Origin: Shigella phage ESh26
Length of the DNA stretch: 64,000 nt
Reading direction: 5' to 3' (one strand)
Sequence record: ON528736
A program made the translations under genes and the position numbers. Below are positions 1,205-53,796 of this stretch, one piece after another. The notes under the pieces were generated by a model. It made no database searches. It was not told where the DNA came from and saw only the letters and a program-made list of their open reading frames with translations. Position 1 is the stretch's first letter. Every line of letters starts with the position of its first letter.

Positions 1205-1206
1205 AG

Positions 1207-1464: not shown

Positions 1465-1465
1465 A

Positions 1466-3134: not shown

Positions 3135-3143
3135 ACTTACTCC

Positions 3144-4662: not shown

Positions 4663-4739
4663 TCATTTTTTCCATAGGCATCATTATATTTTCCTCACTG
4701 GTTAAAGATAGAGTAATTATAACACAATAAATTTAGGCA

Positions 4740-6319: not shown

Positions 6320-6472
6320 TTAAACCTCAATTGATACATTCATATTTAACTTGTAACAGTAATAAACCCCAACCTATAATAAGTGTCGGAATCATACAAG
6401 GAACCGTTACGCTATAGTATATACTTATTATAATCATCAAGATTAAAAGCAATACTGCTAAAATTTTGCTTT

Positions 6473-6724
6473 TCATTCCTTCTCTCTGATGATAATTACT
6501 TGATTCGGTTGTGCAGATTTTTTAGTTTCACCCGCAATTGACCAAATAAATGTAATAAACCAACCAATAATTGACCAATTAAACAGTAAAGATGTGAAAA
6601 AGATTCCTACTGTCGATTTTGACCCACGCATCAAGGCGATGAACCACGGAAGCATGTATATAATGATAGCCAACACGCCTGAAACTAAAACCATAAAAAT
6701 TGAACCTGCTACTAAAGTTTCCAT
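6473..6724 (-). CDS. imm: immunity to superinfection membrane protein Imm
   Basis: 83 aa, two hydrophobic helices, position between 43 and 42. Confidence 0.8.
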   Translation of the reverse strand: METLVAGSIFMVLVSGVLAIIIYMLPWFIALMRGSKSTVGIFFTSLLFNWSIIGWFITFIWSIAGETKKSAQPNQVIIIREKE

Positions 6725-6731
6725 GTTTTCC

Positions 6732-7112
6732 TCACTTAGTCAAATTTTTTACACATGAATTATAAGAATTCACTACATACTCCATCGGAGCATTTTTACC
6801 GGTACGCCATTGGTAATTATTAGCCCAATTAGCCCAAAGTTCGGCGCAGTAGTTTTCAATTTTTTCTTCGCGTGTAATTACATCTGAATTACGATATGCT
6901 TGAGCAGATTCATCTGGACGAATAGCTTCGTCAAAATTCGCCTGCATTTGTTCTACTGTCTGTTTTGGAGCTTCTTTATAACACTTGACGTTAGGATTAT
7001 AAAATTTGCTTGAACAGTTTACAATTTTTCCTACATCAGATTGATTTACTACCGGTCCTTGAGCTACACAGCCAGTAAGACCCAATGTAATAACCAAAAT
7101 AGCAATTTTCAT
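6732..7112 (-). CDS. predicted lipoprotein
   Basis: 126 aa, signal peptide with lipobox LTGC. Confidence 0.5.
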   Translation of the reverse strand: MKIAILVITLGLTGCVAQGPVVNQSDVGKIVNCSSKFYNPNVKCYKEAPKQTVEQMQANFDEAIRPDESAQAYRNSDVITREEKIENYCAELWANWANNYQWRTGKNAPMEYVVNSYNSCVKNLTK

Positions 7113-7122
7113 AATAATTTCC

Positions 7123-7380
7123 TCAAATACAAGCAGTAATTACTCCAGTAGTGCTTACACAGGTATTACCTAATTGAACACCAAGCGTTCCATTAGTATT
7201 CATATGAAGATTATCATCAATTTTTGTTGATACTTTACCATTCATGTGAATAACAGTATTAGATTCAATCACATTCTGAGTGTCATTTTCAATATCAATA
7301 AATGGAACAGCTGCTAATGCAACTAGAACAACTGCTAATGCAACTAAACACGCTGCTAAACAACCATAAACAATTTTCAT
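7123..7380 (-). CDS. small membrane protein
   Basis: 85 aa from ATG 7378-7380 (MKIVYGCLAAC...), early promoter and SD directly upstream; the longer track ORF would read through the promoter. Confidence 0.5.
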   Translation of the reverse strand: MKIVYGCLAACLVALAVVLVALAAVPFIDIENDTQNVIESNTVIHMNGKVSTKIDDNLHMNTNGTLGVQLGNTCVSTTGVITACI

Positions 7381-7411
7381 TTTATTCTCCAAATCCGTAT
7401 CAGTTGATAGT

Positions 7412-7444
7412 TGTATAGTACCATGGAAGAACAGAGATGTAAAC
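7412..7444 (-). promoter_or_regulatory. T4-type early promoter
   Basis: GTTTAC -35, GGTACTATAC -10, A/T-rich UP region; same cassette as at 33874-33905. Confidence 0.65.
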
Positions 7445-7532
7445 CGTTTTGTGAAAAAATTTTTAATGAATTTACAGGACCTAGAATCATCTATTTTTCC
7501 TAAGTATAGATTTATATTACTTGTATGAAAAA

Positions 7533-7548
7533 GGGACCCGGAGGTCCC
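7533..7548 (-). terminator. rho-independent terminator after gene 43
   Basis: minus GGGACC-UCCG-GGUCCC followed by UUUUU. Confidence 0.7.
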
Positions 7549-7561
7549 TAGATTTATTCTA

Positions 7562-10258: not shown

Positions 10259-10298
10259 AGATATTCCTTAGTTTATAGCCCGAGTTATTAGGCTCTTA
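10259..10298 (-). promoter_or_regulatory. gene 43 translational operator (autoregulatory hairpin plus SD)
   Basis: minus strand GAGCCUAAUAACUCGGGCUAUAAACUAAGGAAUAUCUAUG matches recalled T4 gp43 operator. Confidence 0.6.
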
Positions 10299-10316
10299 AT
10301 ATATTATACTCCAAAT

Positions 10317-10334
10317 AAGGGGCCGAAGCCCCTT
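10317..10334 (-). other. intergenic UUCG-tetraloop hairpin (RNA stability or attenuation element)
   Basis: GGGGC-UUCG-GCCCC on minus strand, weak U tail. Confidence 0.5.
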
Positions 10335-10338
10335 TGCT

Positions 10339-10575
10339 TTAAATTTCTATTGTACGACGCGATATAACGGACTTGCCATCTTTATTTGTGGTTTTGATAA
10401 TCGCATGAAATGCGAGCTGGTGCGGGTAAACTAATCGTTGGAATTCTTTTTGGAATTCTATTTGTTTATCTTCCGGGAGGTCAAAAACCAGTTGGGTAGA
10501 AGACAGACCATATGTTTGTTTTAGATTTTCGAATATTAGAAAAGCTTCGGTAAACTGAATCTCTGATTGTGTCAT
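10339..10575 (-). CDS. hypothetical protein between regA and gene 43
   Basis: 78 aa from ATG 10573-10575 with AAGG SD. Confidence 0.4.
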   Translation of the reverse strand: MTQSEIQFTEAFLIFENLKQTYGLSSTQLVFDLPEDKQIEFQKEFQRLVYPHQLAFHAIIKTTNKDGKSVISRRTIEI

Positions 10576-10585
10576 ATAATTTGCC

Positions 10586-10954
10586 TTAATTACCAATCGT
10601 ATATTTAGGAACGAGTTTCCATTCGTGTTTTTGTTTAAAAGAAATAACTCGGAAGTTATTAGTTAAATCTTTCATAAAAGTTCTTTGACCAGGAACGATT
10701 TCAATCAGTCCCCAATCTTCTAACAGCCACGCAATCGAATCACGACGAACTTCATCTTCTTCTGTCATTTCAACCTGACGGCCATCCATACGAAGCATTT
10801 CTTTAAAATGAACGATATAGTATAGTCCTTTTTTCTGAAGAATATGACAGGACTGATACAGAACTTTATCTTTATTATTAGCAATTCCCATACGAGTCAA
10901 GGTTTCTTTTACTTTCAGAAAATCTTCAGGTTTTTTAAGAGTAATTTCAATCAT
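10586..10954 (-). CDS. regA: RegA translational repressor
   Basis: 122 aa MIEITLKKPEDFLKVKETLTRMGIANNKDKV..., matches recalled T4 RegA. Confidence 0.9.
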   Translation of the reverse strand: MIEITLKKPEDFLKVKETLTRMGIANNKDKVLYQSCHILQKKGLYYIVHFKEMLRMDGRQVEMTEEDEVRRDSIAWLLEDWGLIEIVPGQRTFMKDLTNNFRVISFKQKHEWKLVPKYTIGN

Positions 10955-10955
10955 T

Positions 10956-11519
10956 TTACCATTCCAATGCTAGTTTTTTGAGTTGTTTCTGTTCTTTTAC
11001 ATTCTTAGTCACTTCTTTCAAAAAATCATCCGTGACTAAACCTTTTAGTTCTTTTAATACTAAAGGAAGTTTTCCATTTTTAGTAAGAATTGATTTATAG
11101 TTAATTGCATCATTTGTATTAACTTGATACCGCTTAGCAAGTAACTTAATAATCAATACTTCGGTAGAATCTTCGACCAGTTTTGCCCATTTACCATATC
11201 TTTTACCACGAGGAACAGCAGCCATCAGATAATTAAAATGGGCTTCATCACTTAAACCTGATCCAATTAAATTCATCGCATATACAGCTGGCATGCATTC
11301 AGGAAATTGTGATAATGCATTCTCAACCATGTATTTTGAATAATCTTTTTGAGCAATAGAGCATTTAGTTTTATTATTAATAGCTCCAATTATTTCAAAA
11401 AATTCATTTTCAGCTTTTTCCTTAAAAGAATCAGCAGCAGATTGGACAGCTGTCCAATCTTTTGAATACCAAGCAACTTGATGCTCGTTTAATTGAATAT
11501 CATCTTCAAATAAGCTCAT
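10956..11519 (-). CDS. 62: clamp loader small subunit gp62
   Basis: 187 aa, between 44 and regA. Confidence 0.85.
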
Positions 11520-11520
11520 A

Positions 11521-12495
11521 TCACTTCCACTGCATTTCGCATGCTAATTGAATGAAAAGATATGCTAAATGTAATTCCGTATTAGCCGCAATTCCATGAT
11601 ATTGGTTATTTTCACCAACAATTTCATACATACGAATAATACTTTGCGGAGTTACGCGTGTATAAATTTCTTCGGCAAGTTTACCTACGAACCACGAATA
11701 ATCAGCTGCATATTTTGGCGCTAAAGCTCTGAGCTGTTTAACATCTTTATTTTTGAGAGATTCAAGAACATCATCAATAGCACCACGATCGTTAGTAACC
11801 AGTGATAAAATACCAGCATCCAAAACACCTTTAGATGAATAACTATCGAGCTCACCAATAGTTTTACGAAAATCAGGAAAATTCTTTTTAACCAAAGCTG
11901 CTACAACTTTCATATCAGCTATAGCAATTCCTTCATGCTTGCAGATTTCAGTCAATCGACGAATCATCTGCTTCATCATTTCAATTTTATCTTCATCGGT
12001 CGGCTGACCGAACGTAATAACTCGGCAGCGTGACTGAAGCGGTTTAATAATACCATCAATATTGTTAGCAGTAATAATAATACTACAGTTTGAACTATAA
12101 GCTTCCATAAAGGAACGAAGATGTCGCTGAGACTCTGCTAACCCTGAACGGTCAAATTCATCAATAATGATTACTTTTTGACGACCATCAAATGAAGCTG
12201 CACTAGCAAAATTAGTCAAAGGACCACGAACGAAATCAATTTTACAATCTGACCCATTCACAAACATCATATCAGCATTTACATCATGACACAATGCTTT
12301 TGCTACAGTTGTTTTACCTGTTCCTGGAGAAGGAGAATGAAGAATAATATGTGGAATCTTACCTTTACTTGTAATAGATTTAAAGGTTTCTTTATCAAAG
12401 GCGGGAAGAATACATTCATCGATAGTAGATGGACGATATTTCTGTTCAAGAATGTGTTCTTTTTCATTTACAGTAATCATAATTTCCTCATTCAA
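11521..12495 (-). CDS. 44: clamp loader ATPase gp44
   Basis: 324 aa, Walker [14 protein letters not shown]+. Confidence 0.9.
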
Positions 12496-12512
12496 GTTTT
12501 AGTGTAAATTAT

Positions 12513-12530
12513 AAAGGGCCGAAGCCCTTT
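12513..12530 (-). other. intergenic UUCG-tetraloop hairpin between 45 and 44
   Basis: AAAGGGC-UUCG-GCCCUUU. Confidence 0.5.
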
Positions 12531-12531
12531 A

Positions 12532-13218
12532 TTAAAAATCGTGGGTAGAATCAGCTTCAAGAGCTACTACATAATTCGCGTGTTCACCTTCAAATTTAGC
12601 AGCACCTTGTTTACCTTTTGCCCAGAGCAGAAGTTTATAATTTCCTGGTTGCATTTTCATATTTGCCATATTGATAATGAAATTAAATGTATTTTCACCA
12701 TCATAATCACCAAGAGTCAAAGAATATTTAACGCGAGTCAAAGCAGAATCTTCTACTTTGTTAAAACCGTTAATTACAATTTTACCTTCTTTTACTGTGA
12801 TAGCAATTGTATCAATCTGCAGACCACGAGATACACGCAACAGCTGTTGAAGGTCTTCAGCTTTAATTTCGGTAACAACAGATGCTACCGGGAATGGAAT
12901 TGGTTTATTAGGAGCAACTACTGTACTCGGATCGGCTGCTGGCCAAAAAATTGTTGAACGAGCATCAGCAATTTTAATATTTCCATCTTCTGACTGGGAA
13001 ATTTCTGCATCGTCATTAACTAAAGACAGAATACCGAGAAAACCGTTCAAATCGTAAATTGCTACATCAAAATCAATAGTGTCAGAAATATTTGCTTCCG
13101 CATAAGTTGTACCATTAACTGCGCGAGTCATAATAAATTGACCAGATTTAAGCATAATACCAGAGTTAATAGTAGCGAAATTTTTGAGCAGAGCAGTAGT
13201 ATCTTTAGACAGTTTCAT
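12532..13218 (-). CDS. 45: sliding clamp gp45
   Basis: 228 aa, T4 length and synteny. Confidence 0.9.
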   Translation of the reverse strand: MKLSKDTTALLKNFATINSGIMLKSGQFIMTRAVNGTTYAEANISDTIDFDVAIYDLNGFLGILSLVNDDAEISQSEDGNIKIADARSTIFWPAADPSTVVAPNKPIPFPVASVVTEIKAEDLQQLLRVSRGLQIDTIAITVKEGKIVINGFNKVEDSALTRVKYSLTLGDYDGENTFNFIINMANMKMQPGNYKLLLWAKGKQGAAKFEGEHANYVVALEADSTHDF

Positions 13219-13273
13219 GTAATTTCCTTCAATTCAAATGAGATTTAATTTTATAACTAATTTAATCAAGCAA

Positions 13274-13663
13274 TTAACGATTAAAATCGGCAGCAATTGT
13301 TTCTGCAACAATTTGAGCAGCAACAATTAGACGTTCATCTGCATTACCACAATAATCATCTTCAAGACGTTCACCACATGAAGTCATAATAAATTTAGCA
13401 CCAGCATTTAAAGATTCTGTCGTATGTTTGCGCATTAGTTCAATCCATTTATTACTTACTTCACGATCGATAGCTTCATAATACGCATGACGAGCAGGTG
13501 CAGATTTAATTTTGCTCTGAATAACTTCCATCGCGTTATCAGAAAGAGACAAAACCCATGCTCGACGAATTTTATTTTGGTTTTGTGGATTTGAATCAGA
13601 ACGCACGTGTTTTGGCTGAATATCTTTTACATCAACAGTATAATTCACAGTAATTTTAGTCAT
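13274..13663 (-). CDS. rpbA: RNA polymerase binding protein RpbA
   Basis: 129 aa, position between 45 and 46. Confidence 0.75.
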
Positions 13664-13672
13664 AATACACCT

Positions 13673-13861
13673 TTAGTCATAATAATCAGTAACAGTCCAA
13701 GCTTCATTCCTGTTGGACATTATTTTCGTATATTCTGATTTAAATGCATTCTTAAGCATAGATTCAGTAACTATATGCTCTTCATTAGAAAAATTATTTC
13801 TCAGAATATATCGTTTTATTTCAGGAATAGTTAATAGATGCTGTCCAGTTGAATATTCCAT
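13673..13861 (-). CDS. hypothetical protein (45.2 position)
   Basis: 62 aa ORF. Confidence 0.45.
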   Translation of the reverse strand: MEYSTGQHLLTIPEIKRYILRNNFSNEEHIVTESMLKNAFKSEYTKIMSNRNEAWTVTDYYD

Positions 13862-13916
13862 GTTTTTCCTCCATAGAGATTATACTCTAATAAATTAAAG
13901 CATAATCTCTTATAAA

Positions 13917-15599
13917 TTAAACCATTACAGTAAATCGACCAACTTTCTTCATTTGAAGATGCTGACCATATGCTTGCGGGTCATGGTCTCTATGTGAAAT
14001 AACAAAAACATTAGTATTTTTTAAACTATCTAAAATAGTTGAAATAGCTTTTACACCTTCAACATCGGTTGCTGAATCAAAAACTTCATCAAGAATTAAT
14101 GTGTTTATTTTAACACCTGAAACTTTTTCAGCAATATCACGCCAAGTAAATAAAAGAGCAATATCAATTCGTGCTTTTTCACCTTGACTAAATGAAGCAT
14201 AACTAAAATCTTCACGACCGCGGGATTTAATTGTCTCATTAAATTCTTCATCTAATGTAAACACATAATCCGCTTCCATTATTTTAAGATAATGGTTAAT
14301 CTGCTTATTAAATAATGGAATGTACTTTTTAATAATAGCACCTTTAATACCAGAATCTTTTAGCATATCAGTCAAAATTCCTCGGTGGTATTTTTCCATT
14401 ACTAAATTAGTTTTTGTCTTAACAATTTTATCAAGTTCTTCTTGAAGCAGTGCTATTTCATCAGCATGGTCAATAAACTCGGATGATGCTTTTTCTATAG
14501 CTGCTTTAACTTTTTTAGCTTTATCTACCGTCGTGATTAGAGATTGCTTTTTATTGCGAATATCATTCGCCAACGTCTGCTGGGTTTTAATATTATCTCG
14601 GTATTCATCAACGAGAACTTTTAAATTATCACGATGTGTTGAAAGCTGTTCAAACGAATGTGTGCATTCAGAAACTTTATCTTTAATTTTAGAAACAACT
14701 TTATCACCGGAACTTAATTGTGACAAACAAGTTGGACATAATCCACCTTCGTGATACATATTAATGACTTTATTATACGAGTCAATTTTTGATTTAATTA
14801 AAAATGCTTCTTGACCGATTTTATTAAATGCATCAGTTGGATCTTCATCCAAAACAATATTAACTAATCTTTCATTAGCTTCTTCTATTTCCGATTTTAA
14901 CGTTCTAGCTTCTTTTGCCAAATCATCATACATATTCTGTAGACGAGTAAGGTTATCACCAGTTAATTTTTTCTGGCGTTCAACGTTATCATTATATATT
15001 TTAATTTGTTGGATAATACTATCTTTTTTAACATCAAGCACTTGGTTTTGTGAATTTAATTCACGTATTAGTGCTTTATTGAGCTTATCCATTTCAGCTA
15101 ATGTTCCTACCTCGAGTAGGTCTTCGACGAGTTTTCTTCTTGCAGGAGTGGATAGGCCCATAAAAGGGGTATATCCAGCCGTGCCGAGTACGACGATCTG
15201 TTTGAAACTGGCGTATGACATTCCGATAAGCTGTTCAAATTCTGCTTGGAAATCTTTACTGCTGGCAGATTCATTAAGACGTGTACCGTTAACGGTGATT
15301 TCGAAAACGTTTGGTTTTTGTCCTCTTTTGATATAGTACTTTTTCTCATCATATTCCATCCACAGTTCAACTAAAAGTTCTTTCTTATTCGTGCTGTTTA
15401 TTAATTGACCTTTCTTTACATCACGAAATGGCTTGCCAAAAAGCCCAAATGTAATGGCTTCTAACATAGTAGACTTACCACCGCCATTTCGCCCAGTAAT
15501 AAGAGTTTTTTGAACCTTATCTAGTTGAATGTCAATAGGATTTCCACCTACTGACATTATATTTTGATACCTAACTCGGTTTAGTTTAAAATTCTTCAC
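13917..15599 (-). CDS. 46: recombination nuclease subunit gp46 (Rad50/SbcC-like)
   Basis: 560 aa, Walker A GRNGGGKST, coiled-coil middle, signature/Walker B at C-terminus. Confidence 0.9.
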   Translation of the reverse strand: MKNFKLNRVRYQNIMSVGGNPIDIQLDKVQKTLITGRNGGGKSTMLEAITFGLFGKPFRDVKKGQLINSTNKKELLVELWMEYDEKKYYIKRGQKPNVFEITVNGTRLNESASSKDFQAEFEQLIGMSYASFKQIVVLGTAGYTPFMGLSTPARRKLVEDLLEVGTLAEMDKLNKALIRELNSQNQVLDVKKDSIIQQIKIYNDNVERQKKLTGDNLTRLQNMYDDLAKEARTLKSEIEEANERLVNIVLDEDPTDAFNKIGQEAFLIKSKIDSYNKVINMYHEGGLCPTCLSQLSSGDKVVSKIKDKVSECTHSFEQLSTHRDNLKVLVDEYRDNIKTQQTLANDIRNKKQSLITTVDKAKKVKAAIEKASSEFIDHADEIALLQEELDKIVKTKTNLVMEKYHRGILTDMLKDSGIKGAIIKKYIPLFNKQINHYLKIMEADYVFTLDEEFNETIKSRGREDFSYASFSQGEKARIDIALLFTWRDIAEKVSGVKINTLILDEVFDSATDVEGVKAISTILDSLKNTNVFVISHRDHDPQAYGQHLQMKKVGRFTVMV

Positions 15600-15859
15600 A
15601 AAAGATTCCTTTTAATGTATCTTTTAGACCATTCTATCATATCATCATAATCTAAAAAGTATTCATCAAATTCAGCCATGCAAACAACACCTTGTGCTGC
15701 TTTTGATGTGATATAAATTATTCCAACATATCTAGAATCTTCTTCGGTGTAATCAATATTTGCTACGAATTCATCGTTAATGTCAAATGTCGAAAACTTC
15801 ACAGTATGCATCCTTAATACAAGATACAGCCATATCTTGTAATGATTTAGGTGTGTCAT
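15596..15859 (-). CDS. hypothetical protein (46.1 position)
   Basis: 87 aa ORF. Confidence 0.45.
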   Translation of the reverse strand: MTHLNHYKIWLYLVLRMHTVKFSTFDINDEFVANIDYTEEDSRYVGIIYITSKAAQGVVCMAEFDEYFLDYDDMIEWSKRYIKRNLL

Positions 15860-16046
15860 TATCTAAAATGTTGAAGTTAAAAGATACAGCCCAGTCAGTG
15901 CAGACCGTAACCTTTTTAATACAATTATCTTCAACCTCTAGCGGTTCAAACCAATATTCAATAATTTCTTTATGCCCAATATCATCTTTTACTTCGCATT
16001 CAAAATGCTGACTCATCATAACATTTTTAAATTCATCAAAAGTCAT
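15783..16046 (-). CDS. hypothetical protein (46.2 position)
   Basis: 87 aa ORF. Confidence 0.45.
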   Translation of the reverse strand: MTFDEFKNVMMSQHFECEVKDDIGHKEIIEYWFEPLEVEDNCIKKVTVCTDWAVSFNFNILDNDTPKSLQDMAVSCIKDAYCEVFDI

Positions 16047-17062
16047 TGTGTTGCCTCTACATATAACTGATTTGCATATTGAATAAGTGCTTCGCGGTCA
16101 GAATCAGTGATGTCTGGAATTGCATTAATGTATTCTTCCATCAACGTCTGAAGAGATTGAACTTCAACTTCTTCACTATCATCTGACTCGACTGAGTTAT
16201 CAATCTTTGACACAACTCGTAATGAATGCACAACTTTTTCTAGTTCAGATTCGAACTTCGTTAAATTTTTGTCTACTTCAGTTACTATAACACGCACTGA
16301 TAGATTTGTAAAATCTTTATAGTCAATTTTTCCCTTAAATGGATATTGAATTCGACGATGCCAGGTGGTGTTGTTTGGAATAAATTCCATTCGTTCTGTT
16401 TCTGTATCAAACATCCAGAACCCACGAGGGTCATTCTCGTCACCTGCAGTTAGTGTCCATGGTGTCCCAATATATCTGACGTTAGCAGCCTCAGAGATAG
16501 TATGGAAGTGACCAGACCACACCTCTTTATAAGTCTTAAGGAAATCAGGTTCAAGACCGTGAGATTTCATTCCTTTATAAAAATAAAATCCATTCAGTTC
16601 CCAGTGACCAACACAAAAAGAAGCAGATGAAGTTTTGATGTGTTCAAGAATTTCACCAGTATTTTCTTCGCACATCCAAGGAATTAAATCAATCAAACAC
16701 CCGTCAAAATCTACTGTAGTAGGCTTATCATATACTTTAACATTAGGATATTTAGCCAAAAGCTCAGTAGAAGCATTTGGAGTTAAAGTATTTTTAAAGT
16801 GCATATCATGGTTTCCTACGACAGTATGTAGGGTAATACCAGCATCATCAAGCATTTGAACTATTTCACGAGCGAACTCCATAGTTTTATGTGTGATTGC
16901 TTTTCGCACATCAAAAATATCGCCGTATTGAATCCATGTAGTAATTCCGTTTTTCTTAGAATATTCTATTGCTTGTTTAATTCCATCCAACTGAATGGAT
17001 TGAACCCACTCATCATCGGCTTTAACACCTAAATGCCAATCACCTAAATTTAAAATTTTCAT
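16043..17062 (-). CDS. 47: recombination nuclease subunit gp47 (Mre11/SbcD-like)
   Basis: 339 aa, phosphoesterase motifs GDWHLG, GNHD. Confidence 0.9.
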   Translation of the reverse strand: MKILNLGDWHLGVKADDEWVQSIQLDGIKQAIEYSKKNGITTWIQYGDIFDVRKAITHKTMEFAREIVQMLDDAGITLHTVVGNHDMHFKNTLTPNASTELLAKYPNVKVYDKPTTVDFDGCLIDLIPWMCEENTGEILEHIKTSSASFCVGHWELNGFYFYKGMKSHGLEPDFLKTYKEVWSGHFHTISEAANVRYIGTPWTLTAGDENDPRGFWMFDTETERMEFIPNNTTWHRRIQYPFKGKIDYKDFTNLSVRVIVTEVDKNLTKFESELEKVVHSLRVVSKIDNSVESDDSEEVEVQSLQTLMEEYINAIPDITDSDREALIQYANQLYVEATQ

Positions 17063-17222
17063 ATATCAAGAACCGTCATTGAAATGCAAAATAAAATTAT
17101 TGAAATAAATCCATCTGGAGTGCTAAAGAACCCAATCCAACATGCTCTAGTGAATAGATAAAACGCGAGAAAAAGTATCACATATCCAAGAAATATCATT
17201 ATATCAAACTCCGTATAAAGCT

Positions 17223-17240
17223 AAAGGGCCGAAGCCCTTT
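17223..17240 (-). other. UUCG-tetraloop hairpin downstream of a-gt
   Basis: AAAGGGC-UUCG-GCCCUUU overlapping a-gt stop. Confidence 0.5.
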
Positions 17241-18441
17241 ATTTTGTAATAATGTCAAACTGTTCTTTAAAGCAGAAGCTTGAATCTTGATGCTGATACA
17301 AAAATTCATAAGCTTTTTCGCGTTCACGGTCATAAAGAGCTCGGTCAGATGACAGTTCTTTAATACGCTCAAATGTTGATTCCATGTCATTTTCATCAAA
17401 CCAAACGATACCGCTATCATGAGAAATTAACGGAGTATTATCAACACGGAATTTTAAATTTTCGCCAGTAGATTTCCAAAATACCGGAATTGTTCCGCAC
17501 GCACCAAGCTCGAGATGAGTATATTCTAAAGAACGTTGTAGATATTTTTTGTCCAACTTACTCAACTGATAACCAAATCCGGATTTACTCATGCGTTCAA
17601 GCATTTCGCTATTTACATAACGGTCGAGAATTTGCGTTGGCAAATTAGGAGCAATTTTAATTTGGTCTACTTGATGAAGACGATAATACTCGTATGGAAT
17701 TCCTTTTTCTTTAATAGGAATGAACGCTGGAGAACGTTCCAGACCTTCCATAATAGTACTTAGTCCAGCAGGTTTAAGATGTTTTTCGTGAAAATCAAAC
17801 ATCTGATAAAAGCCTTTCCATGTAGTCGTACGACCAATCCAACGGTTGACATTCATGTTAATTTCAGAAACATCTTTCCAGTATGTTGATCGAACTTTCG
17901 CAATATCCATAGGAGGCTGAAAGTTGTATACGGTCGGTGCTTCTTCAATATCATCAAACAGAGAAACTGTTTCTGGATACCATTCTTTCATCAGAACTTT
18001 ATTAAAATCACCATTATCAGAATGACTAAAAATAACATCAGCTCGGCGAACAGTTTCTTCTAATCCCAAATTTCGACGCAAAGAAAGAGAAGAATGGTCA
18101 TGTTGATAAACTACAACACGAACCGAAGGTTTAATGTTATCAATAATTTTTTTATAGTTATTAATAGTGTCTTCTTCGACTGAAGTAGCAGGAACTGAAT
18201 TGATAATTAGAATATCACAATCATTTACCAGCTTAAGTGTTTTATCGTATTCTTTTGCCAATAAAACCGGAATTGAAAATGATTTATAATCATGCGCGCA
18301 ATTACGTGTAAATGATTTATCTTTAGCATAAACCAAAGTTACTTCATGACCATTTTTAATAAACCAATCACGCTGCTCAAGAGAAAATTTAGTTACGCCG
18401 CAACCTTCAAGACCTCGAGCCATAAAAATGCATACTTTCAT
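17239..18441 (-). CDS. agt: DNA alpha-glucosyltransferase
   Basis: 400 aa MKVCIFMARGLEGCGVTKF..., near-identical to recalled T4 alpha-gt. Confidence 0.85.
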   Translation of the reverse strand: MKVCIFMARGLEGCGVTKFSLEQRDWFIKNGHEVTLVYAKDKSFTRNCAHDYKSFSIPVLLAKEYDKTLKLVNDCDILIINSVPATSVEEDTINNYKKIIDNIKPSVRVVVYQHDHSSLSLRRNLGLEETVRRADVIFSHSDNGDFNKVLMKEWYPETVSLFDDIEEAPTVYNFQPPMDIAKVRSTYWKDVSEINMNVNRWIGRTTTWKGFYQMFDFHEKHLKPAGLSTIMEGLERSPAFIPIKEKGIPYEYYRLHQVDQIKIAPNLPTQILDRYVNSEMLERMSKSGFGYQLSKLDKKYLQRSLEYTHLELGACGTIPVFWKSTGENLKFRVDNTPLISHDSGIVWFDENDMESTFERIKELSSDRALYDREREKAYEFLYQHQDSSFCFKEQFDIITK

Positions 18442-18492
18442 TTAATATCCTCATTGTTTTGGTTTATTTTACCAAAAATTTATAAAGCAATA

Positions 18493-18510
18493 TAGGAGCC
18501 GAAGCTCCTA
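18493..18510 (-). other. UUCG-tetraloop hairpin
   Basis: UAGGAGC-UUCG-GCUCCUA. Confidence 0.45.
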
Positions 18511-18684
18511 TCCGCATAATACACCGTACAGAGGCTCATTAGAGCTTCTAAATTTTATACGCTTATATGTTATAGTTCCTTCTGCTTTAGCTTTATCATG
18601 AGACTCTTTAAAGCGTCTCATCATTTCTACTTTAGAGGAACGAATTTTATTATAATCTATTTCAGAAGTCTGGGTGTTCATCTT

Positions 18685-18891
18685 TCACAGTTGCCACCAT
18701 TTTTTGACTTGATAGGAATCAACCCACACTTTCATATTAGGGTCTGCTCTTACAATAGGAGGATTAACTTCTTTAATTGAACTATCATGGTATTCTTTTT
18801 CAGAAATTTTCACACAAAGATGACCATTCAAAGATTCAGTAAATCCGGCATTAATTTTAAGACGCTTGAATTTTACGTGTGTAAGCATCAA
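18685..18891 (-). CDS. hypothetical protein
   Basis: 68 aa ORF, overlaps next ORF by 35 nt. Confidence 0.3.
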   Translation of the reverse strand: MMLTHVKFKRLKINAGFTESLNGHLCVKISEKEYHDSSIKEVNPPIVRADPNMKVWVDSYQVKKWWQL

Positions 18892-19174
18892 TCATATCCT
18901 CAATCTGCGATCTAGTAGTCTTCCAAAGAATACTAATGAGTTCATCGTTATATGGCTGTTTTAGAATATCCCGACTTTTCTTGATAGCATATTCGTATTG
19001 AGCAAAATTATTGTTTTCAGCTGCAAGCTGAGCGTGCTTATAAAGACGGTTCAATTCGCGTTTGTTTTTAGACAATAACTTATTTGCTTTTCTTTCTGCT
19101 TCAAGACGGTTCTTTTCTTCAATAGAAGAAATAAGCTTTTCCACTTCATCATTAATTTCGGGTTTATCAGTCAT
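18857..19174 (-). CDS. hypothetical protein
   Basis: 105 aa ORF. Confidence 0.45.
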   Translation of the reverse strand: MTDKPEINDEVEKLISSIEEKNRLEAERKANKLLSKNKRELNRLYKHAQLAAENNNFAQYEYAIKKSRDILKQPYNDELISILWKTTRSQIEDMIDAYTRKIQAS

Positions 19175-19175
19175 A

Positions 19176-19394
19176 TTATTTCTCTAATATAAAATAAAAA
19201 TCATCATCTGTTAAATGATACCGATAGTTTAATTCTACACCATTAGATTTAAAAGCGGTATCATACGGATTTTCTGGATCAATATCAATGTCAAGAGCTA
19301 AAACTTCCCTGAGATACATTTTAAGTAAATAGGGAATAGCTTCAACTTCAGGTATTTCTTCCAAGAATCCGGAGAGGTTAATCGTTAGCCTCAT
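19176..19394 (-). CDS. hypothetical protein
   Basis: 72 aa ORF. Confidence 0.4.
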
Positions 19395-19941
19395 ATAAAA
19401 AATCCAAACTAGGAGAATCGTCTACAACACTTTTCTTTTCAGCCCCCGGTGTTCTATAGGTTGATTCTTCGTAATGCGTCATTTTATCGTAGATGTCTTG
19501 AATAAAAGTTTCATCTACTAACGCAACCATATCGTCGTCACGACTGTCATAGACATTGTGAACGAAGTAACTGTATTTCTTTGCAACTTCCTTACGTTCT
19601 TTTTTAATACGTTGGACGAATGCATTAAAACAAGCTTGAGTTATATATGCATGTGGGTTTTTATATTTCGTTTCATCAAAATTATGAAGCCCCTTAATAG
19701 AAGCTTCTATACCATCTGCAATCATTTCTTGTTTCCAGGATTGGGTGTATCCTGAAAAGTTGAAACGTTTAGATAAGCCTTCTGCGATAAGCATAATGGC
19801 TAATCCGATAGTATCATTCTGACGAACTACTTTATTTGGGTCTTTATTATTTGCTAATTCTGTTTTCCAATCAATAATAGCTTGTAAAAGCTCTTTATTG
19901 TTTACGTAATTATATTTAGGCTTAGTTTCTGACATTTTCAC
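19378..19941 (-). CDS. 55: late-transcription sigma factor gp55
   Basis: 187 aa, T4 synteny. Confidence 0.9.
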
Positions 19942-20013
19942 CTCTTAGCTCAATTCATAGATCTATTATATCATAATATTTGAAGATCTATCTTAAAGCA
20001 TAGAGGATATCAG

Positions 20014-43851: not shown

Positions 43852-44329
43852 TTATTTGAATGATTTGACGTACTGAATAGAACCTTTACTATTCACGAAA
43901 GCGATTTTACCATTTTTGTTATACATGGTAGCAGTACGCTGATAGCCATAAGTTTGCTTACCAGATTGATAACCAACTAATGCAAAATTATCTTCACCCA
44001 TTTTATTCTGCTTCGCGCGGATACGTTCATGACCGTGCGCCATAAGAACCTTAGCATCGCCAGTTGAAATTGATCTACGAGTTTTTTCATCTTCAACTGT
44101 ACTAACAAAGTCGTCAAATGAATCAAATTTAGCATGAGATTTATTATACAGTTTTCCATCTACTGCATAATTATATCCCTGTACATCCATCTCAACTTCT
44201 GTACCATCATCCAATACAGCAGTGATTTTTTGACCTTTTTTAAATTTCAAAAGATCAGTAAAAGATTCAGCAATAATTTGAGAATTAATAGCTGGCTGCT
44301 TCAGTGATAAATTCTTGATATGTTTTCAT
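43852..44329 (-). pseudogene. internal-protein-like gene with capsid-targeting leader out of frame with its body
   Basis: ATG 44327-44329 encodes MKTYQEFITEAASY then TAA at 44285-44287; 132-codon body 43852-44250 is in +1 frame with no ATG; late promoter and SD upstream. Confidence 0.45.
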
Positions 44330-44338: not shown

Positions 44339-44755
44339 TTAAATGTAAATATTTTTACCGTAGTATTTATACCAGTGTGGCTTCATTAAAATTTTTTCAT
44401 CGAGTCGTTGTTGACTCAATTTAATAGCAGATTTGCATGGATTATAATCATTTTTCCATTCTGCTGGAATATCGCTGATGTCAGGAACTTCAGTATCTTT
44501 TATACTAAACCCACGTTTTAAGCATTCCGTTATAATGTCTGATTGACGCTTTCGCAAAAATTCTAACTTATCGTAAAAGAACGTAACATGACCAGAACCT
44601 AAAATAAACTCAGAAGATATTTTAAAATCTTTAACCCGCTTACCATTTGCCACGTGTTTACGAACTATACCAAAAACACGTGGCAATTCACGGTATTCTG
44701 CGATTAAATGTTGATCAGCAAGTTCAGATACTAAAGTCAAATTAATACGAGTCAT
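44339..44755 (-). CDS. denV: endonuclease V (pyrimidine dimer glycosylase)
   Basis: 138 aa from ATG 44753-44755, [17 protein letters not shown]...; track ORF starts 12 codons upstream. Confidence 0.85.
44364..44371 (-). promoter_or_regulatory. late promoter TATAAATA (gp55-dependent)
   Basis: exact TATAAATA on minus strand about 35 nt upstream of ATG 44329. Confidence 0.6.
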
Positions 44756-44815: not shown

Positions 44816-45346
<531 letters not shown>

Positions 45347-49218: not shown

Positions 49219-49237
49219 CCCTATCATTTAGATAGGG
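49219..49237 (-). terminator. rho-independent terminator after internal protein gene
   Basis: CCCUAUC-loop-GAUAGGG then CUUUUU. Confidence 0.65.
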
Positions 49238-49245
49238 ATTTAAAA

Positions 49246-49809
49246 TTATTTATCTAGTTTAGTTATTATAGCTTCTGCAGCAGCTTTTAGCTTAGATGCG
49301 GTGTTAATACGATTTTTAATTTCAGTATACGCATCGCCAAGAACATCAAGGCTATCAGAATAAACACTTACACTATTGCGTTCGCTATTTGAAATAGAAC
49401 CTTTAGTTTTGCGGTCAAAATCGGTGTACACGTCTTGAAGATCGCGGGCTGCCTTCTTTGCATCATCCAATGCATCAAGAGCTTTATTCAAAGCATTAAC
49501 GTATTTTTTAGTGTCGAACATATTCTTAGAAATTTTAACAGGTGCGCGTTCAGGAGTAGCTAACACAGATTTAGGAACCTGAGCGCCAGATGCCAATTTC
49601 TTAGAAATTTTGAAAAATGCTTTATTGAATTTATTTTCTTGACTCATTGTAAAAGAACTATTATCGATGTTGTACATTTCAATAGCTTTAGCTTTCCACT
49701 TAAGAAAATCGCCGCGGTCTTTTGGGTCCAATTGGAAGAATACTTTAGTAAGATCTGCTTCAGATGGTAATTTTGCTGCTTCGGTTAAAAATTCGGCATA
49801 GGTTTTCAT
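49246..49809 (-). CDS. internal protein (head-packaged, capsid-targeting leader)
   Basis: 187 aa, N-term MKTYAEFLTEAAKL; terminator after stop. Confidence 0.6.
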   Translation of the reverse strand: MKTYAEFLTEAAKLPSEADLTKVFFQLDPKDRGDFLKWKAKAIEMYNIDNSSFTMSQENKFNKAFFKISKKLASGAQVPKSVLATPERAPVKISKNMFDTKKYVNALNKALDALDDAKKAARDLQDVYTDFDRKTKGSISNSERNSVSVYSDSLDVLGDAYTEIKNRINTASKLKAAAEAIITKLDK

Positions 49810-49905
49810 TTAAAATCCTTGAAATAATTTATCGGTTGGTTATTAATTATTTATTACTTTGTTACTATCCGTAGCAGCATTCTCTATGTGATTCAAACCA
49901 AAAAG

Positions 49906-49925
49906 CCCCAACCTTTCGGCTGGGG
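49906..49925 (-). terminator. rho-independent terminator after internal protein gene
   Basis: 8 bp stem CCCCAGCC/GGUUGGGG with GAAA loop then CUUUUU. Confidence 0.75.
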
Positions 49926-49934
49926 TTAAGAATG

Positions 49935-50408
49935 TTATTTGATTTGTTTAGCAGACCAAATGCGGTCTTTAATAATTTTTTGGATGTCTTCAACATACTC
50001 AAGAGAGTGAACATGCGGATTATCTTTGAAACTATAAGCACGGGCTAACTTTTGGCCTTCGGTTTTGATTACTAAAAGCTCTTTAAGGATAGCTTCATAT
50101 TTAGCGATAATTCCTTTAACGATATTTTTTTCTTGTGCAGCTTTAGGATCTGCTTTAGGAGCAGGTTTACCCGAAGCCTTTGCAAAAGCAGCGCCAGTAG
50201 CAACTAAACTTTTCCAGGCCATACTAACTGCATTTCCCGTAAATCCTTCTGCTTTCATGTCGCGAGCAAATTGGAATCGTGATTCGTCAGAAGCATCTTT
50301 ATAGGAATATTTACCCGCTGCAATGGCTGCTTTTGCGACAGCTTGAATTTCGGTGCTAGATGCTTCATTTAACACCGCTTCATTTAAAAATTGAGCATAT
50401 GATTTCAT
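49935..50408 (-). CDS. internal protein (capsid-targeting leader)
   Basis: 157 aa, N-term MKSYAQFLNEAVL; late promoter TATAAATA upstream; terminator after stop. Confidence 0.6.
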   Translation of the reverse strand: MKSYAQFLNEAVLNEASSTEIQAVAKAAIAAGKYSYKDASDESRFQFARDMKAEGFTGNAVSMAWKSLVATGAAFAKASGKPAPKADPKAAQEKNIVKGIIAKYEAILKELLVIKTEGQKLARAYSFKDNPHVHSLEYVEDIQKIIKDRIWSAKQIK

Positions 50409-50448
50409 CTTATTTCCTGTTTTAATTCGTGGATTTAATATACTACTA

Positions 50449-50456
50449 TATTTATA
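50449..50456 (-). promoter_or_regulatory. late promoter TATAAATA
   Basis: minus-strand TATAAATA upstream of internal protein gene start 50408. Confidence 0.6.
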
Positions 50457-50463
50457 CTAAAAA

Positions 50464-50485
50464 GCCCCAACCTTTCGGTCGGGGC
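50464..50485 (-). terminator. rho-independent terminator ending the tRNA/stable-RNA transcription unit
   Basis: 9 bp stem, GAAA loop, then UUUUU. Confidence 0.75.
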
Positions 50486-50797
50486 TAAGCCTTGCGGCAA
50501 CCTTGTCGGGGTTCCACCTGCTAAGGCAAGTGTTTGTACGAAACGCCGGGATTCGAACCCGGTTATTAAGCAGTTGACGCTACTCAATATTTTTAAAAGG
50601 CCATATCTCGACCATATCCGAACGTTCCGTCAAAAACGCTACTCGGCTTACGGCAAAGATATTTCCTCGAATCGATAATTCTGTGCGCCGTTTCTGCTGT
50701 GATGTAAGGGGACATTAACAGATCGTAAAGATTTGTTAATGCCAGTCCTTACCCAGGGAACATCAGTCCGACGACTTACCGGTAGCGACCCGGTTTC
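50486..50797 (-). ncRNA. candidate stable RNA region with tRNA T-arm motif
   Basis: 312 nt without ORF, GC-richer than surroundings, CCGGGTTCGAATCCCGG on minus strand, ends at strong terminator 50464-50485. Confidence 0.3.
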
Positions 50798-51148
50798 TTA
50801 ATATTCTTTTAAAGCATCAATCTGTTCACGGCGTTTACGCCATAAATCAATTGCTTCATACGCAGATTCAGCATTTCGAATTAGTCGGCATTTGTGTAAA
50901 GACTTGTGATTTTGATATTGCGTAGATAACGAAATTTTATCTAAAAGGTCTTTACGTTCAAAGTATTCGTAACCATCTAAGCCAAATGAACGATTTTTGA
51001 GAAATTGCCAATGACCATATTCGTTTTCGACATAAACATAATCCGCATGTTGATAAAGCAAATTAATTACACGTTCAGAAATAACAGTGTCATTGTGATT
51101 AAAATAAAATGTTAAATCATGAACTACTAAATAAACATTACCTTTCAT
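50798..51148 (-). CDS. hypothetical protein immediately downstream of tRNA-Arg
   Basis: 116 aa, GAGGAA SD 8 nt before ATG. Confidence 0.45.
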   Translation of the reverse strand: MKGNVYLVVHDLTFYFNHNDTVISERVINLLYQHADYVYVENEYGHWQFLKNRSFGLDGYEYFERKDLLDKISLSTQYQNHKSLHKCRLIRNAESAYEAIDLWRKRREQIDALKEY

Positions 51149-51154: not shown

Positions 51155-51230
51155 CTCACTTAATTGGTCGAGGCAGTAGGGATCGAACCTACGACCTAGG
51201 ACTTAGAAGGTCCTTGCTCTTCCTTCTGAG
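51155..51230 (-). tRNA. tRNA-Arg (anticodon UCU)
   Basis: hand-folded cloverleaf, 76 nt, T-loop TTCGATC, CCA encoded. Confidence 0.85.
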
Positions 51231-51234
51231 CTAT

Positions 51235-51310
51235 GCCCCGTAATTGGGGTGACCGATGGGGGTCGAACCCATGACTACGAGAATCACAATCTCGAGTTCT
51301 ACCAACTGAA
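51235..51310 (-). tRNA. tRNA-His (anticodon GUG), no encoded G-1
   Basis: hand-folded, 7 bp acceptor GTGGCCG/CGGTCAC, C73, CCA encoded. Confidence 0.75.
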
Positions 51311-51423
51311 CTACGGCCACATTAATACCTACTCCAACAATCAAGATGTCTTCACACGAAATTAAGAGAAGAGTGATCAGTTCAACCCTATAATCGCGTC
51401 AAGTAGATATTAATGTGACAGTT
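51311..51423 (-). ncRNA. 113 nt spacer inside tRNA cluster, possible small stable RNA
   Basis: no ORF; palindrome TGTGACAGTTGTCACA; lies between tRNA-Asn and tRNA-His. Confidence 0.2.
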
Positions 51424-51498
51424 GTCACAAATTTGGCGGACGTGATAGGATTCGAACCTATAACCAATCGCTTAACAGGCGATCGCTCTGCCATTGAG
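51424..51498 (-). tRNA. tRNA-Asn (anticodon GUU)
   Basis: hand-folded, 75 nt, anticodon loop CTGTTAA, CCA encoded. Confidence 0.8.
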
Positions 51499-51502
51499 CT
51501 AC

Positions 51503-51589
51503 ACATCCAAATTGGTGGGGAGTGATGGAGTCGAACCACCCGAGTCGCAATGACAATGGATTTACAGTCCACACCGCTACCTCTACGGG
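51503..51589 (-). tRNA. tRNA-Tyr (anticodon GUA), long variable arm
   Basis: hand-folded, 87 nt, loop CTGTAAA, class II variable arm. Confidence 0.8.
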
Positions 51590-51602
51590 ATAACTCCCCT
51601 TA

Positions 51603-51677
51603 ATTCTTAATTTGGTGGCCCTGGGTGGAATTGAACCACCATCTGGCGATTATGAGTCGCTTGCTTGAACCTTCCAG
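51603..51677 (-). tRNA. tRNA with CAU anticodon (Ile-lysidine type by position, or Met)
   Basis: hand-folded, 75 nt; follows Thr as tRNA-Ile does in T4. Confidence 0.75.
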
Positions 51678-51678
51678 C

Positions 51679-51754
51679 TACAGGGCCTTGGTGCTGATTG
51701 ACGGAATCGAACCGCCGACCTTCTCATTACAAGTGAGTTGCTCTACCTACTGAG
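51679..51754 (-). tRNA. tRNA-Thr (anticodon UGU)
   Basis: hand-folded, 76 nt, loop CTTGTAA. Confidence 0.85.
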
Positions 51755-51759
51755 CTAAA

Positions 51760-51849
51760 TCAGCAAAACTGGCGGAGGCGATAGGATTTGAACCTATGAG
51801 TCGCCGGAGCGACTGCCGGTTTTCAAGACCGGTGCATTAAACCACTCTG
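51760..51849 (-). tRNA. tRNA-Ser (anticodon UGA), long variable arm
   Basis: hand-folded, 90 nt. Confidence 0.85.
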
Positions 51850-51851
51850 CC

Positions 51852-51925
51852 ACGCCTCCAGTCTCCATACAAGGATTTGAACCTTGGACCTCCTGATCCC
51901 AAATCAGGCGCTCTACCAAACTGAG
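51852..51925 (-). tRNA. tRNA-Pro (anticodon UGG), CCA not encoded
   Basis: hand-folded, 74 nt, loop TTTGGGA. Confidence 0.8.
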
Positions 51926-51935
51926 CTACACGGAG

Positions 51936-52101
<166 letters not shown>

Positions 52102-52102
52102 C

Positions 52103-52175
52103 CATTCTCGCGCTGGGAATAAAGGACTCGAACCTTTGCATCCTGGAATCAAAATCCAGTGCCTTACCAACTTGG
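52103..52175 (-). tRNA. tRNA-Gln (anticodon UUG), CCA not encoded
   Basis: hand-folded, 73 nt, 5' UGGGAAU. Confidence 0.85.
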
Positions 52176-52282
52176 CTAATTCCCAATTATTAACAAAGGC
52201 TCTTAAGCAAGAACCCTTGATGATAGAGGGTATTAATCAGTGCGATATGAGTTAATAATAACAAATAATTCTTAAAGCATAT

Positions 52283-53228: not shown

Positions 53229-53462
53229 TTATTTTTTACGAAAAATTGATTTATTTTCTGCTGCCCATTTTTCAATAACTGCAGCAGGACCAGTAACAAC
53301 AATTTTATCACCGTAATCTTCTGCGGCGAGTTGACCGAAATTATCTAATGCATCACGAAGAACTCCATAAGGCATTTCACCCATTTTATCTTTCTTGCCA
53401 GTGTAAATAAACTCAACTTTTACATCAGAAGATTCAGCGATAAACTCTTTGAAAGTTTTCAT
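53229..53462 (-). CDS. internal protein (capsid-targeting leader)
   Basis: 77 aa from ATG 53460-53462, MKTFKEFIAESS; early promoter upstream. Confidence 0.55.
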   Translation of the reverse strand: MKTFKEFIAESSDVKVEFIYTGKKDKMGEMPYGVLRDALDNFGQLAAEDYGDKIVVTGPAAVIEKWAAENKSIFRKK

Positions 53463-53538: not shown

Positions 53539-53796
53539 TTATTTTAAATCTTCTAATCGTTTCTTCATCTTAGAACCATTTTTAGCAATTTCTCCTGCAT
53601 CGGAGCATAACGCTAAAAGTGCTTTAACTTTAGTTTGGTCTCCTTTAAAAGATGAAGGATCGACTGCAGCAGCAAGTTCTTTAATACGAGAGAAAAGACG
53701 CTCAGCTTCAGCTAAAGCCATTCCAAGCTTTACTTCCATACCGTGAGAAGATTCAGTGATAGTAGTTTTTGTAGCAAACTCTTTGAAAGTTTTCAT
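53539..53796 (-). CDS. internal protein (capsid-targeting leader)
   Basis: 85 aa MKTFKEFATKTTITESS; early promoter upstream. Confidence 0.55.
   Translation of the reverse strand: MKTFKEFATKTTITESSHGMEVKLGMALAEAERLFSRIKELAAAVDPSSFKGDQTKVKALLALCSDAGEIAKNGSKMKKRLEDLK

Follow-up and report, generated by a model that had tools for sequence, protein, structure and literature searches.

Locus and genes

The DNA analysed here, referred to as the window, comprises 64,000 nt of Shigella phage ESh26 (ON528736), and all coordinates refer to the whole window. It is a Tequatrovirus (T4-like) segment that is collinear with T4 from gene 61.1 to past gene 5. An earlier reading of these letters (the original prediction) had proposed two internal-protein (Ip) genes with capsid-targeting leaders, terminators and a late promoter. 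Open reading frames (ORFs) were found at exactly the coordinates given there and with the N-termini quoted; they are here called gene A and gene B (Table 1) and, like all genes of interest in the window, lie on the minus strand. Both genes are real and under purifying selection. The ratio of nonsynonymous to synonymous substitution rates (dN/dS) is 0.03-0.12 for B, at dS values of up to about 2, and 0.09 for A against the related locus L007, the single informative pair.

In a blastn comparison with T4, window 48692-49221 matches up to the terminator of T4 and window 50454-50798 matches from that terminator on. What lies between is an insertion into the gap between e.8 and rnaC, which in T4 is otherwise empty and here holds genes A and B as two tandem cassettes. 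Rfam has no family for rnaC or rnaD and so gave no match, and the region was identified by the blastn comparison. The original prediction had placed the genes after e/nudE; they are actually 3.4 kb off, with e.2-e.8 intervening, and upstream of e in the direction of transcription. It was correct in that denV (44345-44755) and e (44816-45310) are adjacent in the window, where T4 has ipII and ipIII between them.

Terminators and promoters

Both of the strong terminators that had been predicted, one after each gene, are present (T2 after B and T1 after A), and the total is three rather than two. T3, at the 5' boundary of cassette B, is the orthologue of the single terminator of T4, which ends the tRNA/rnaD/rnaC transcription unit. 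T2 is a near-repeat of T3 and corresponds to the '34 bp imperfect direct repeat' remarked in the RB32 record. Folding energies of T1-T3 have shuffle z-scores of -2.9 to -3.3.

The late promoter predicted ahead of the second gene was also found, as the T4-type octamer TATAAATA. The count of this octamer alone is not significant in the AT-rich window (10 found versus 10.7 expected); its position before gene B is conserved, abutting the terminator in 10 of 12 loci, with AATAAATA in the other two (L007 and L011). Before gene A the motif is AATAAATA, which has one mismatch to the late promoter and is conserved in all five A-bearing loci, the diverged L007 included. From these motifs, gene B, and probably also gene A, has a late promoter of its own. 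No sigma70-like site was found at the promoter positions of the two cassettes, and the early promoter for e.8 comes after T1, as in T4. Because the terminators and promoters are placed in this way, genes A and B form terminator-insulated units between the early/middle RNA operon and the early operon. The three terminators and the promoter signals are conserved over the 12 loci and across genera; the order of terminator, TATAAATA, Shine-Dalgarno site and ATG is also found before the B-family gene of the Klebsiella Jiaodavirus KpV477. Furthermore, the annotation of phage fPS-90, made independently, shows these three terminators and the late promoter as well.

An alignment of four terminators (the single one of T4, T3, T2 and T1) gives a crossover core of GGGCTTTTT, where the upstream flank of T4 is kept by T3 and the downstream flank by T1. 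The join to the T4-type flank GGTATCTAGGCC is made by B's terminator in phages with B only and by A's terminator in phages with B and A; in the window it is the 3' arm and T-tract of T1 that rejoin this flank. Shuffling by PeSL and PmSL elements, that is stem-loops joined to early or middle promoters, leaves the same junction signature (Arbiol et al. 2010; Comeau et al. 2014; PMC2839356, PMC4122927). As in those elements, a stem-loop terminator and a promoter are repeated around variable ORFs and the indel junctions lie inside the repeats, but the promoter of the A and B cassettes is the late TATAAATA or a variant of it instead of an early sigma70-like or a middle MotA-type promoter. A late-promoter version is not mentioned in PMC2839356 or PMC4122927. 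From the junctions we infer that the cassettes move by recombination in the repeats. The upstream regions of ip5, ip6 and ipI, unlike the A and B cassettes, are classic PeSLs with TTTACA-N17-TACTAT early promoters in stem-loops.

N-terminal leaders

Residues 1-10 of IPIII (MKTYQEFIAE) suffice for head incorporation, and within this capsid-targeting sequence (CTS) residues 4 and 7 serve mainly for targeting and residues 8 and 10 for processing (PMC9026906). In T4 record X04567, IpII and IpIII both have an annotated -10 propeptide. The leaders of A and B are, as far as sequence can tell, of the capsid-targeting type that had been predicted: both carry Y4, F7, L8 and E10, all four mapped determinants of the IPII/IPIII CTS. 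Both also end in putative cleavage sites of the gp21 (gene product 21) type, (L/I)-x-E, namely LTE10 in A and LNE10 together with LNE15 in B. An alignment of the B family shows no variation at M1, F7, L8 or the E that precedes (A/Q)S, and homologues with as little as 31-55% identity (P0021, P0022, P0027 and the L013 protein) still have the leader. The window has six matches to the leader pattern MK[TS][YF]x[EQ]F[ILVA]x[ETK], and 200 randomised windows have none. The six matches are A, B, Ip5, an IpVI-like gene, a fossil ip4 leader and the orthologue of T4 gp61.1.

The gp61.1 orthologue (54 aa, 96% identity) starts with MKTYKEFIKE, which is CTS-like with an I-x-E end, and continues with an acidic, Gly/Lys-rich tail of 44 aa. 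It is 'hypothetical' in the T4 annotation.

Mature proteins and homologues

Cut at the leader, mature A would have 19.7 kDa, an isoelectric point (pI) of 9.46 and 14.7% Lys, and mature B 15.5 kDa, a pI of 9.59 and 14.1% Lys. With a net charge of +8, both are basic and Lys-rich as are IPII (pI 9.56) and IPIII (pI 9.65). Beyond the leader [LI]xE does not occur in A and occurs once in B (LKE108-110, within a predicted helix); with so few sites, A and B should outlast gp21 as large fragments and not be degraded like scaffold proteins. AlphaFold models predict an architecture common to both proteins, consisting of the leader, a helical N-domain, a linker and, at the C-terminus, two long helices that form a hairpin. 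In the model of B (pLDDT 72) the N-domain is helical over about 60 aa and the linker is a disordered Lys/Pro/Ala segment, while the model of A has a small helical N-domain, a disordered linker and a long C-terminal helical hairpin.

Searches of Pfam, NCBIfam, PHROGs and PDB sequences, and of BFVD and PDB by Foldseek, returned only phrog_2280, self-hits and sub-threshold noise. A and B both belong to phrog_2280, which PHROGs lists with unknown function. For A, a HMMER search over 1.8 billion representatives gave one true distant homologue, P0027. When A and B were compared with each other as possible paralogues, BLASTP and hhalign on shallow alignments matched nothing past the leader, and a leaderless profile-profile comparison reached only 47% probability, over the C-terminal hairpin. 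A 205-aa protein from loci L013 and L015 is 36% identical to P0027, 28% to A over the full length, 27% to B and 25% to the C-domain of the Klebsiella B-type protein P0022. Such bridging proteins (the 205-aa protein of L013 and P0022) suggest mosaics of N- and C-domains, and it is probably through mosaic proteins that PHROG 2280 merges A and B.

Some B-family genes are truncated past the N-domain, by an in-frame TAA in KpV477 and in Tequatrovirus versions of 93 and 108 aa (P0019 and P0020). These truncations suggest either that the N-domain alone is a functional unit or that the genes decay recurrently.

Relation to IPII, IPIII and the numbered Ips

The original prediction had implied a link to ipII and ipIII, and in its strongest form A and B would be these two genes moved from the denV-e junction to the e.8-rnaC gap. 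Both are indeed missing between denV and e, there are two genes in the gap, and the length of A is near that of IPIII (187 versus 193 aa). An alignment to IPII and IPIII had been named as a check; in BLASTP only the first 11-12 or so residues align, that is the leader alone, B and IPII do not align at all, and orthology was rejected. Past the leader, no likeness of A or B was found to T4 IPI, IPII or IPIII or to Ip4, Ip5, Ip7 or Ip9 of RB32. Furthermore, L007 carries A and B together with IPIII, three loci (L004, L010 and L012) carry B with IPIII, and L011 carries B with IPII; RB32 and fD1 have B alongside Ip4, and beyond denV the window carries a frameshifted ip4 of its own. Co-occurrence in relatives also rejected a mutual exclusivity in which A and B would be a 'replacement' of ipII and ipIII. 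Since A and B co-occur with IPIII and IPII, they are neither relocated ipII/ipIII nor strict replacements for them, and a move of the two genes, refuted by the sequences, has next to no probability.

What is shared with IPII and IPIII is a near-identical 10-residue leader with Y4, F7, I/L8 and E10, a small basic Lys-rich mature protein, and a non-essential gene that is polymorphic among close relatives; late expression would be a further point in common. The differences are the mature sequences, which have no detectable similarity, the site, which is e.8-rnaC instead of denV-e, and the regulatory module of A and B, made of a GC-rich terminator and a late promoter.

The numbered Ips (Ip4/IpIV, Ip5/IpV, IpVI, Ip7 and Ip9, as annotated in RB32 and PST) have the leader-defined class in common with A and B, but those inspected lie at the two classical loci, 57B-tRNA.4 and the e/denV/vs.8 region. 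The curated RB32 record names Ip4, Ip5, Ip7 and Ip9 and leaves RB32ORF133c, which equals B, as 'hypothetical'. Reportedly, the founding Ip nomenclature, Ip4-Ip10, is that of Repoila et al. 1994, and an Ip number may once have been given to a gene at the e.8-rnaC site. The ip1-10 genes that Silas et al. 2025 tested include neither A nor B, and neither leader string occurs in the supplementary files of that study (PMC12373910).

Distribution and content of the slot

Record counts were taken over 50,697 phage records. The e.8 gene was found in 596 of them. The B family, with 511 records (467 of them near full length), reaches about 86% of the e.8 count and roughly twice the number for IPIII (261) or IPII (198); A was found in 164. 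The rows inspected for A or B all read 'hypothetical protein' or 'Phage protein'. T4 has nothing in the e.8-rnaC slot, nor has PST, which the Krisch group annotated; B is the sole occupant in RB32, fD1, L002 and L004, and both B and A are there in the window, L003, L005, L007 and fPS-90. The genes are thus non-essential and polymorphic in presence among close relatives, as is usual for the Ip class.

Other occupants of the slot are the 205-aa A-like protein, an unrelated beta-rich protein of 127 aa whose long leader is of the IPI style, and, on a short metagenomic contig, a 144-aa protein with an ART-PolyVal domain (45.4 bits against a cut-off of 31.2). The gene for the last lies directly after a distant gene-A homologue and behind a hairpin and CATAAATA. 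Each slot occupant has TATAAATA or nATAAATA no more than 70 nt upstream; genes with leaders at the other two loci rarely do. The ART-PolyVal protein is a candidate for a head-packaged, injected ADP-ribosyltransferase (ART) and would in this be analogous to T4 Alt. A and B differ from Alt in having no enzyme domain, and the propeptide of Alt is itself different, with both ends processed (PMC9026906).

Table 1. Coordinates of the e.8-rnaC cassettes and of other genes discussed. Positions refer to the window unless a locus is named; nt, nucleotides; aa, amino acids; dG, folding free energy.
Feature	Position	Strand	Remarks
Insertion relative to T4	49222..50453		1.23 kb, e.8-to-rnaC gap; two tandem cassettes of promoter, Shine-Dalgarno site, leader, ORF and terminator; blastn
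Gene A	49246..49809	-	187 aa, starts MKTYAEFLTEAAKL; ORF, phrog_2280
Gene B	49935..50408	-	157 aa, starts MKSYAQFLNEAVL; ORF, phrog_2280; equals RB32ORF133c
Gene A propeptide/leader (predicted)	49780..49809	-	MKTYAEFLTE then AAKL; only [LI]xE site in protein A
Gene B propeptide/leader (predicted)	50364..50408	-	MKSYAQFLNE, AVLNE, ASS; tandem L-x-E candidate gp21 sites after E10 and E15
Terminator T3	50463..50486	-	dG -20.3 kcal/mol, GAAA tetraloop, U5; 5' boundary of cassette B
Terminator T2, after gene B	49906..49925	-	dG -16.2 kcal/mol, U5; near-repeat of T3
Terminator T1, after gene A	49219..49237	-	dG -10.5 kcal/mol, U5
T4-type late promoter TATAAATA of gene B	50449..50456	-	2 nt past the T-tract of T3, 41 nt before ATG
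AATAAATA, one-mismatch late-promoter-like motif	49848..49855	-	38 nt upstream of gene A ATG; putative function
Shine-Dalgarno AGGA, gene B	50415..50418	-	read from sequence; conserved
Shine-Dalgarno AGGA, gene A	49816..49819	-	read from sequence
205-aa A-like slot protein	L013 6464-7081, L015 6465-7082	+	TATAAATA before gene; just downstream of tRNA cluster
127-aa beta-rich slot protein	L014 4593-4976	+	IPI-style long leader MLTYAEFLNRNTITE, SVLTE; TATAAATA before gene; just downstream of tRNA cluster
144-aa ART-PolyVal gene	L023 2092-2526 (Logan SRR28624380 contig)	+	leader MITFKQFLNE; Pfam E = 1.9e-11
93-aa Ip-type gene	L003 10915-11196, L004 11390-11671, L007 14537-14818, L008 15493-15774, L014 14889-15170	+	
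Truncated B-family gene of KpV477	L021 3495-3731	+	in-frame TAA
gp61.1 orthologue	61-225	-	54 aa
Frameshifted ip4 homologue	43852-44329	-	leader ORF 44285-44329, body 43852-44250
IpVI-like gene	53229-53462	-	leader Met at 53462
Ip5	53539-53796	-	
116-aa ORF	50798-51148	-	phrog_3355
tRNA cluster	51165-52185	-	11 genes

Probable assignment to the internal-protein class

Taken together, A and B in our judgement quite probably belong to the T-even Ip class, in which they have so far gone unnamed. They would be carried in insulated cassettes for late expression, and the gap between e.8 and the tRNA/rnaC unit would be a third Ip site. The internal-protein reading of the original prediction thus stands as a class assignment, made at the level of sequence, by the leaders, the basic Lys-rich composition, the late promoter of B and the virion association of a B orthologue, and falls as regards the link to ipII and ipIII.

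The orthologue in question is g140 of Yersinia phage fD1 (phiD1), which is 97.5% identical to B. In liquid chromatography-tandem mass spectrometry of purified virions it was counted at the strict threshold among the phage particle-associated proteins (PPAPs; PMC8309999 Table S3).

The role of the two proteins was considered by analogy. IPI inhibits the GmrSD enzyme of CT596 (PMC3012670), and growth of T4 on ECOR17 needs IPIII, which, if provided in the host, functions without its CTS (Srikant et al. 2022). Ip1, Ip2 and Ip3 each block a different subtype of GmrSD, a Type IV restriction system, with no cross-protection (Silas et al. 2025, PMC12373910), and in the same study five further T-even-active GmrSD systems had no inhibitor among ip1-10. 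The window encodes gene 42 (dCMP hydroxymethylase, 97%) and alpha-gt (91%), as found by tblastn in window 1-20000; the DNA is therefore expected to contain glucosylated hydroxymethylcytosine (hmC), which makes modification-dependent restriction a relevant threat. By this analogy, it is most likely that A and B are injected and counter host defences as a first response.

T4 beta-gt had no tblastn match in window 1-20000. The pattern of hmC glucosylation may for this reason differ from that of T4, which bears on which Type IV enzymes attack.

Several points weigh against the assignment or against the proposed role. The PPAP list of fD1 covers about 49% of the gene products, including denV, lysozyme e, NudE, e.5 and e.6 (PMC8309999); the list being this unspecific, g140 shows translation and co-purification with virions, not encapsidation or N-terminal processing. 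For gene A no virion data were found, as the fPS-90 paper has no proteomics and the UFV13 paper has four gel bands only. Packaging, N-terminal processing and injection are predictions for this phage. An exact TATAAATA was not found upstream of gene A, and position 6 of the B leader is Q and not E, at a position outside those tested experimentally. The AlphaFold model of A is of low confidence (pLDDT 61). No biochemical activity of A or B emerged from homology or fold matches, and neither protein has sequence or fold similarity to any solved structure. Strong purifying selection is unlike the fast evolution expected of an arms race. Finally, ip4-10 gave no reproducible inhibition of the five further GmrSD systems, so the equation of Ip with GmrSD inhibitor may not generalise.

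Some of these points would suit a different explanation, by which the leader is a non-functional relic of ip-cassette recombination and A and B are late cytoplasmic accessory proteins outside the capsid. Packaging is a prediction, and the fD1 virion list is contaminated with cytoplasmic enzymes; B, with Q6 and S3, is off the MKTYQEF consensus; and the ip4 gene of the window is frameshifted right past its leader, so a leader can become uncoupled from its body. A relic would not be expected to behave as these leaders do, however, with determinant residues that stay invariant across genera while the rest diverges to 30-55% identity, and with an L-x-E cleavage site that is duplicated in several lineages. 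The predicted late-only, terminator-insulated expression also fits the timing of prohead assembly, and we regard the relic as improbable.

The helical, coiled-coil-like architecture with a CTS-type N-terminus would also suit prohead core or scaffold components like gp67 and gp68, which are targeted to the core and which gp21 cuts into small peptides that leave the head ahead of DNA packaging and so are never injected. With a single [LI]xE in A and one extra in B, large mature fragments would survive, and peptides of B occur in mature virions of fD1. The genes are also dispensable, the slot being empty in T4, and it is very improbable that A and B are of this kind.

Proposed mechanism and role

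As members of the Ip class, A and B would be produced and delivered as follows. Late in infection, RNA polymerase with gp55 would start at TATAAATA for B and probably at AATAAATA for A, and the flanking terminators would isolate the two genes from the early/middle tRNA and e.x transcripts. The leader of about 10 residues would, through Y4 and F7, target the proteins to the scaffolding core of the assembling prohead, where gp21 would cut after L-x-E, at LTE10 in A and at LNE10 and/or LNE15 in B. Predicted neo-N-termini are AAKLPSEADLTK for A after E10, AVLNEASSTEIQAVAK for B after E10 and ASSTEIQAVAK for B after E15; uncut leaders would be expected to give peptides containing TYAEFLTEAAK (A) or SYAQFLNEAVLNEASSTEIQAVAK. 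The mature proteins (about 19.7 and 15.5 kDa) would stay in the head among the DNA and be ejected with it at the next infection, acting, as internal proteins do, before any phage gene expression. Their most likely role would be that of specific inhibitors of a host defence, as for T4 Ip1, Ip2 and Ip3. The cassettes would be gained, lost and swapped by recombination in the near-identical repeats of terminator, with or without late promoter. For packaging, cleavage, injection, the target and the recombination mechanism, these are steps that we infer.

The proteins might also be packaged by the leader and have a structural or physical role, as helpers in head assembly or as neutralisers of DNA charge, which was once proposed for IPIII. 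A and B are all-helical, basic and Lys-rich with a Lys/Pro/Ala linker in the models, they are under strong purifying selection and have no fold likeness to known inhibitors; moreover, IPIII mutants are slower in head assembly and form more polyheads, and lysines of Ips contact DNA phosphates (PMC9026906, PMC3012670). Neither protein is needed for head assembly, however, as T4 and PST have nothing in the slot and most B-bearing phages lack A. All three characterised Ips are specific anti-restriction proteins, plasmid-supplied IPIII works without its CTS, and the same slot of a relative holds an enzyme-like effector, the ART. A structural role is on balance unlikely.

A wider proposal, which we put forward tentatively and hold to be somewhat doubtful, is that the e.8-rnaC gap is a third, unlabelled Ip locus of the Tevenvirinae, a cassette array that swaps injected cargo, and that A and/or B neutralise defences beyond the reach of Ip1-10. 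The cargo of such an array would include the A type, the B type, the 205-aa mosaic, the beta-rich 127-aa protein and the ADP-ribosyltransferase-like enzyme, and its joints would be the late-promoter counterpart of PeSLs. Targets could be, for example, the T-even-active GmrSD clades without an Ip inhibitor (Silas et al. 2025) or a first-response system other than GmrSD.

Work from 2022-2025 has established all three T4 Ips as subtype-specific GmrSD inhibitors that decide host range on wild E. coli. A and B are two concrete candidates for those defence systems that have no matched inhibitor, and a leader within a terminator/late-promoter cassette downstream of the tRNA cluster may serve as a rule for finding injected effectors in therapeutic T4-like phages. 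The Ip class is known; new are the unnamed A and B and a slot with its own late-promoter/terminator grammar, which extend an established paradigm and introduce no new principle.

Other features of the region

Beyond the cassettes, a 116-aa ORF lies between rnaD and tRNA-Arg, and segB is absent. The tRNA cluster of the window has 11 genes, including those for His, Asn, Tyr and Met, and that of T4 has 8. A paper on SegB amplification (PMC13096335) deals with this neighbouring tRNA region and not with genes A and B.

Of the Ip genes in the window, Ip5 and the IpVI-like gene occupy the classical ipI locus. The Ip5 of the window is 100% identical to that of RB32. The IpVI-like gene starts at its leader Met, though the listed ORF extends to 53528. 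The ip4 homologue just beyond denV has its own TATAAATA upstream and is broken by a 4-bp insertion relative to RB32 Ip4 (a GCAG/CAGC duplication), by which the leader ORF, MKTYQEFITEAASY and a stop, is severed from a 132-aa body and the CTS is uncoupled from its cargo. The gene may have become a pseudogene, a leaderless protein may be made from a restart at TTG, or the insertion may be a sequencing error. Several relatives carry, directly downstream of e, a further leader-bearing gene of 93 aa (MKTY[SN]EFL[ST]...ILNEATD...), which is absent from the window.

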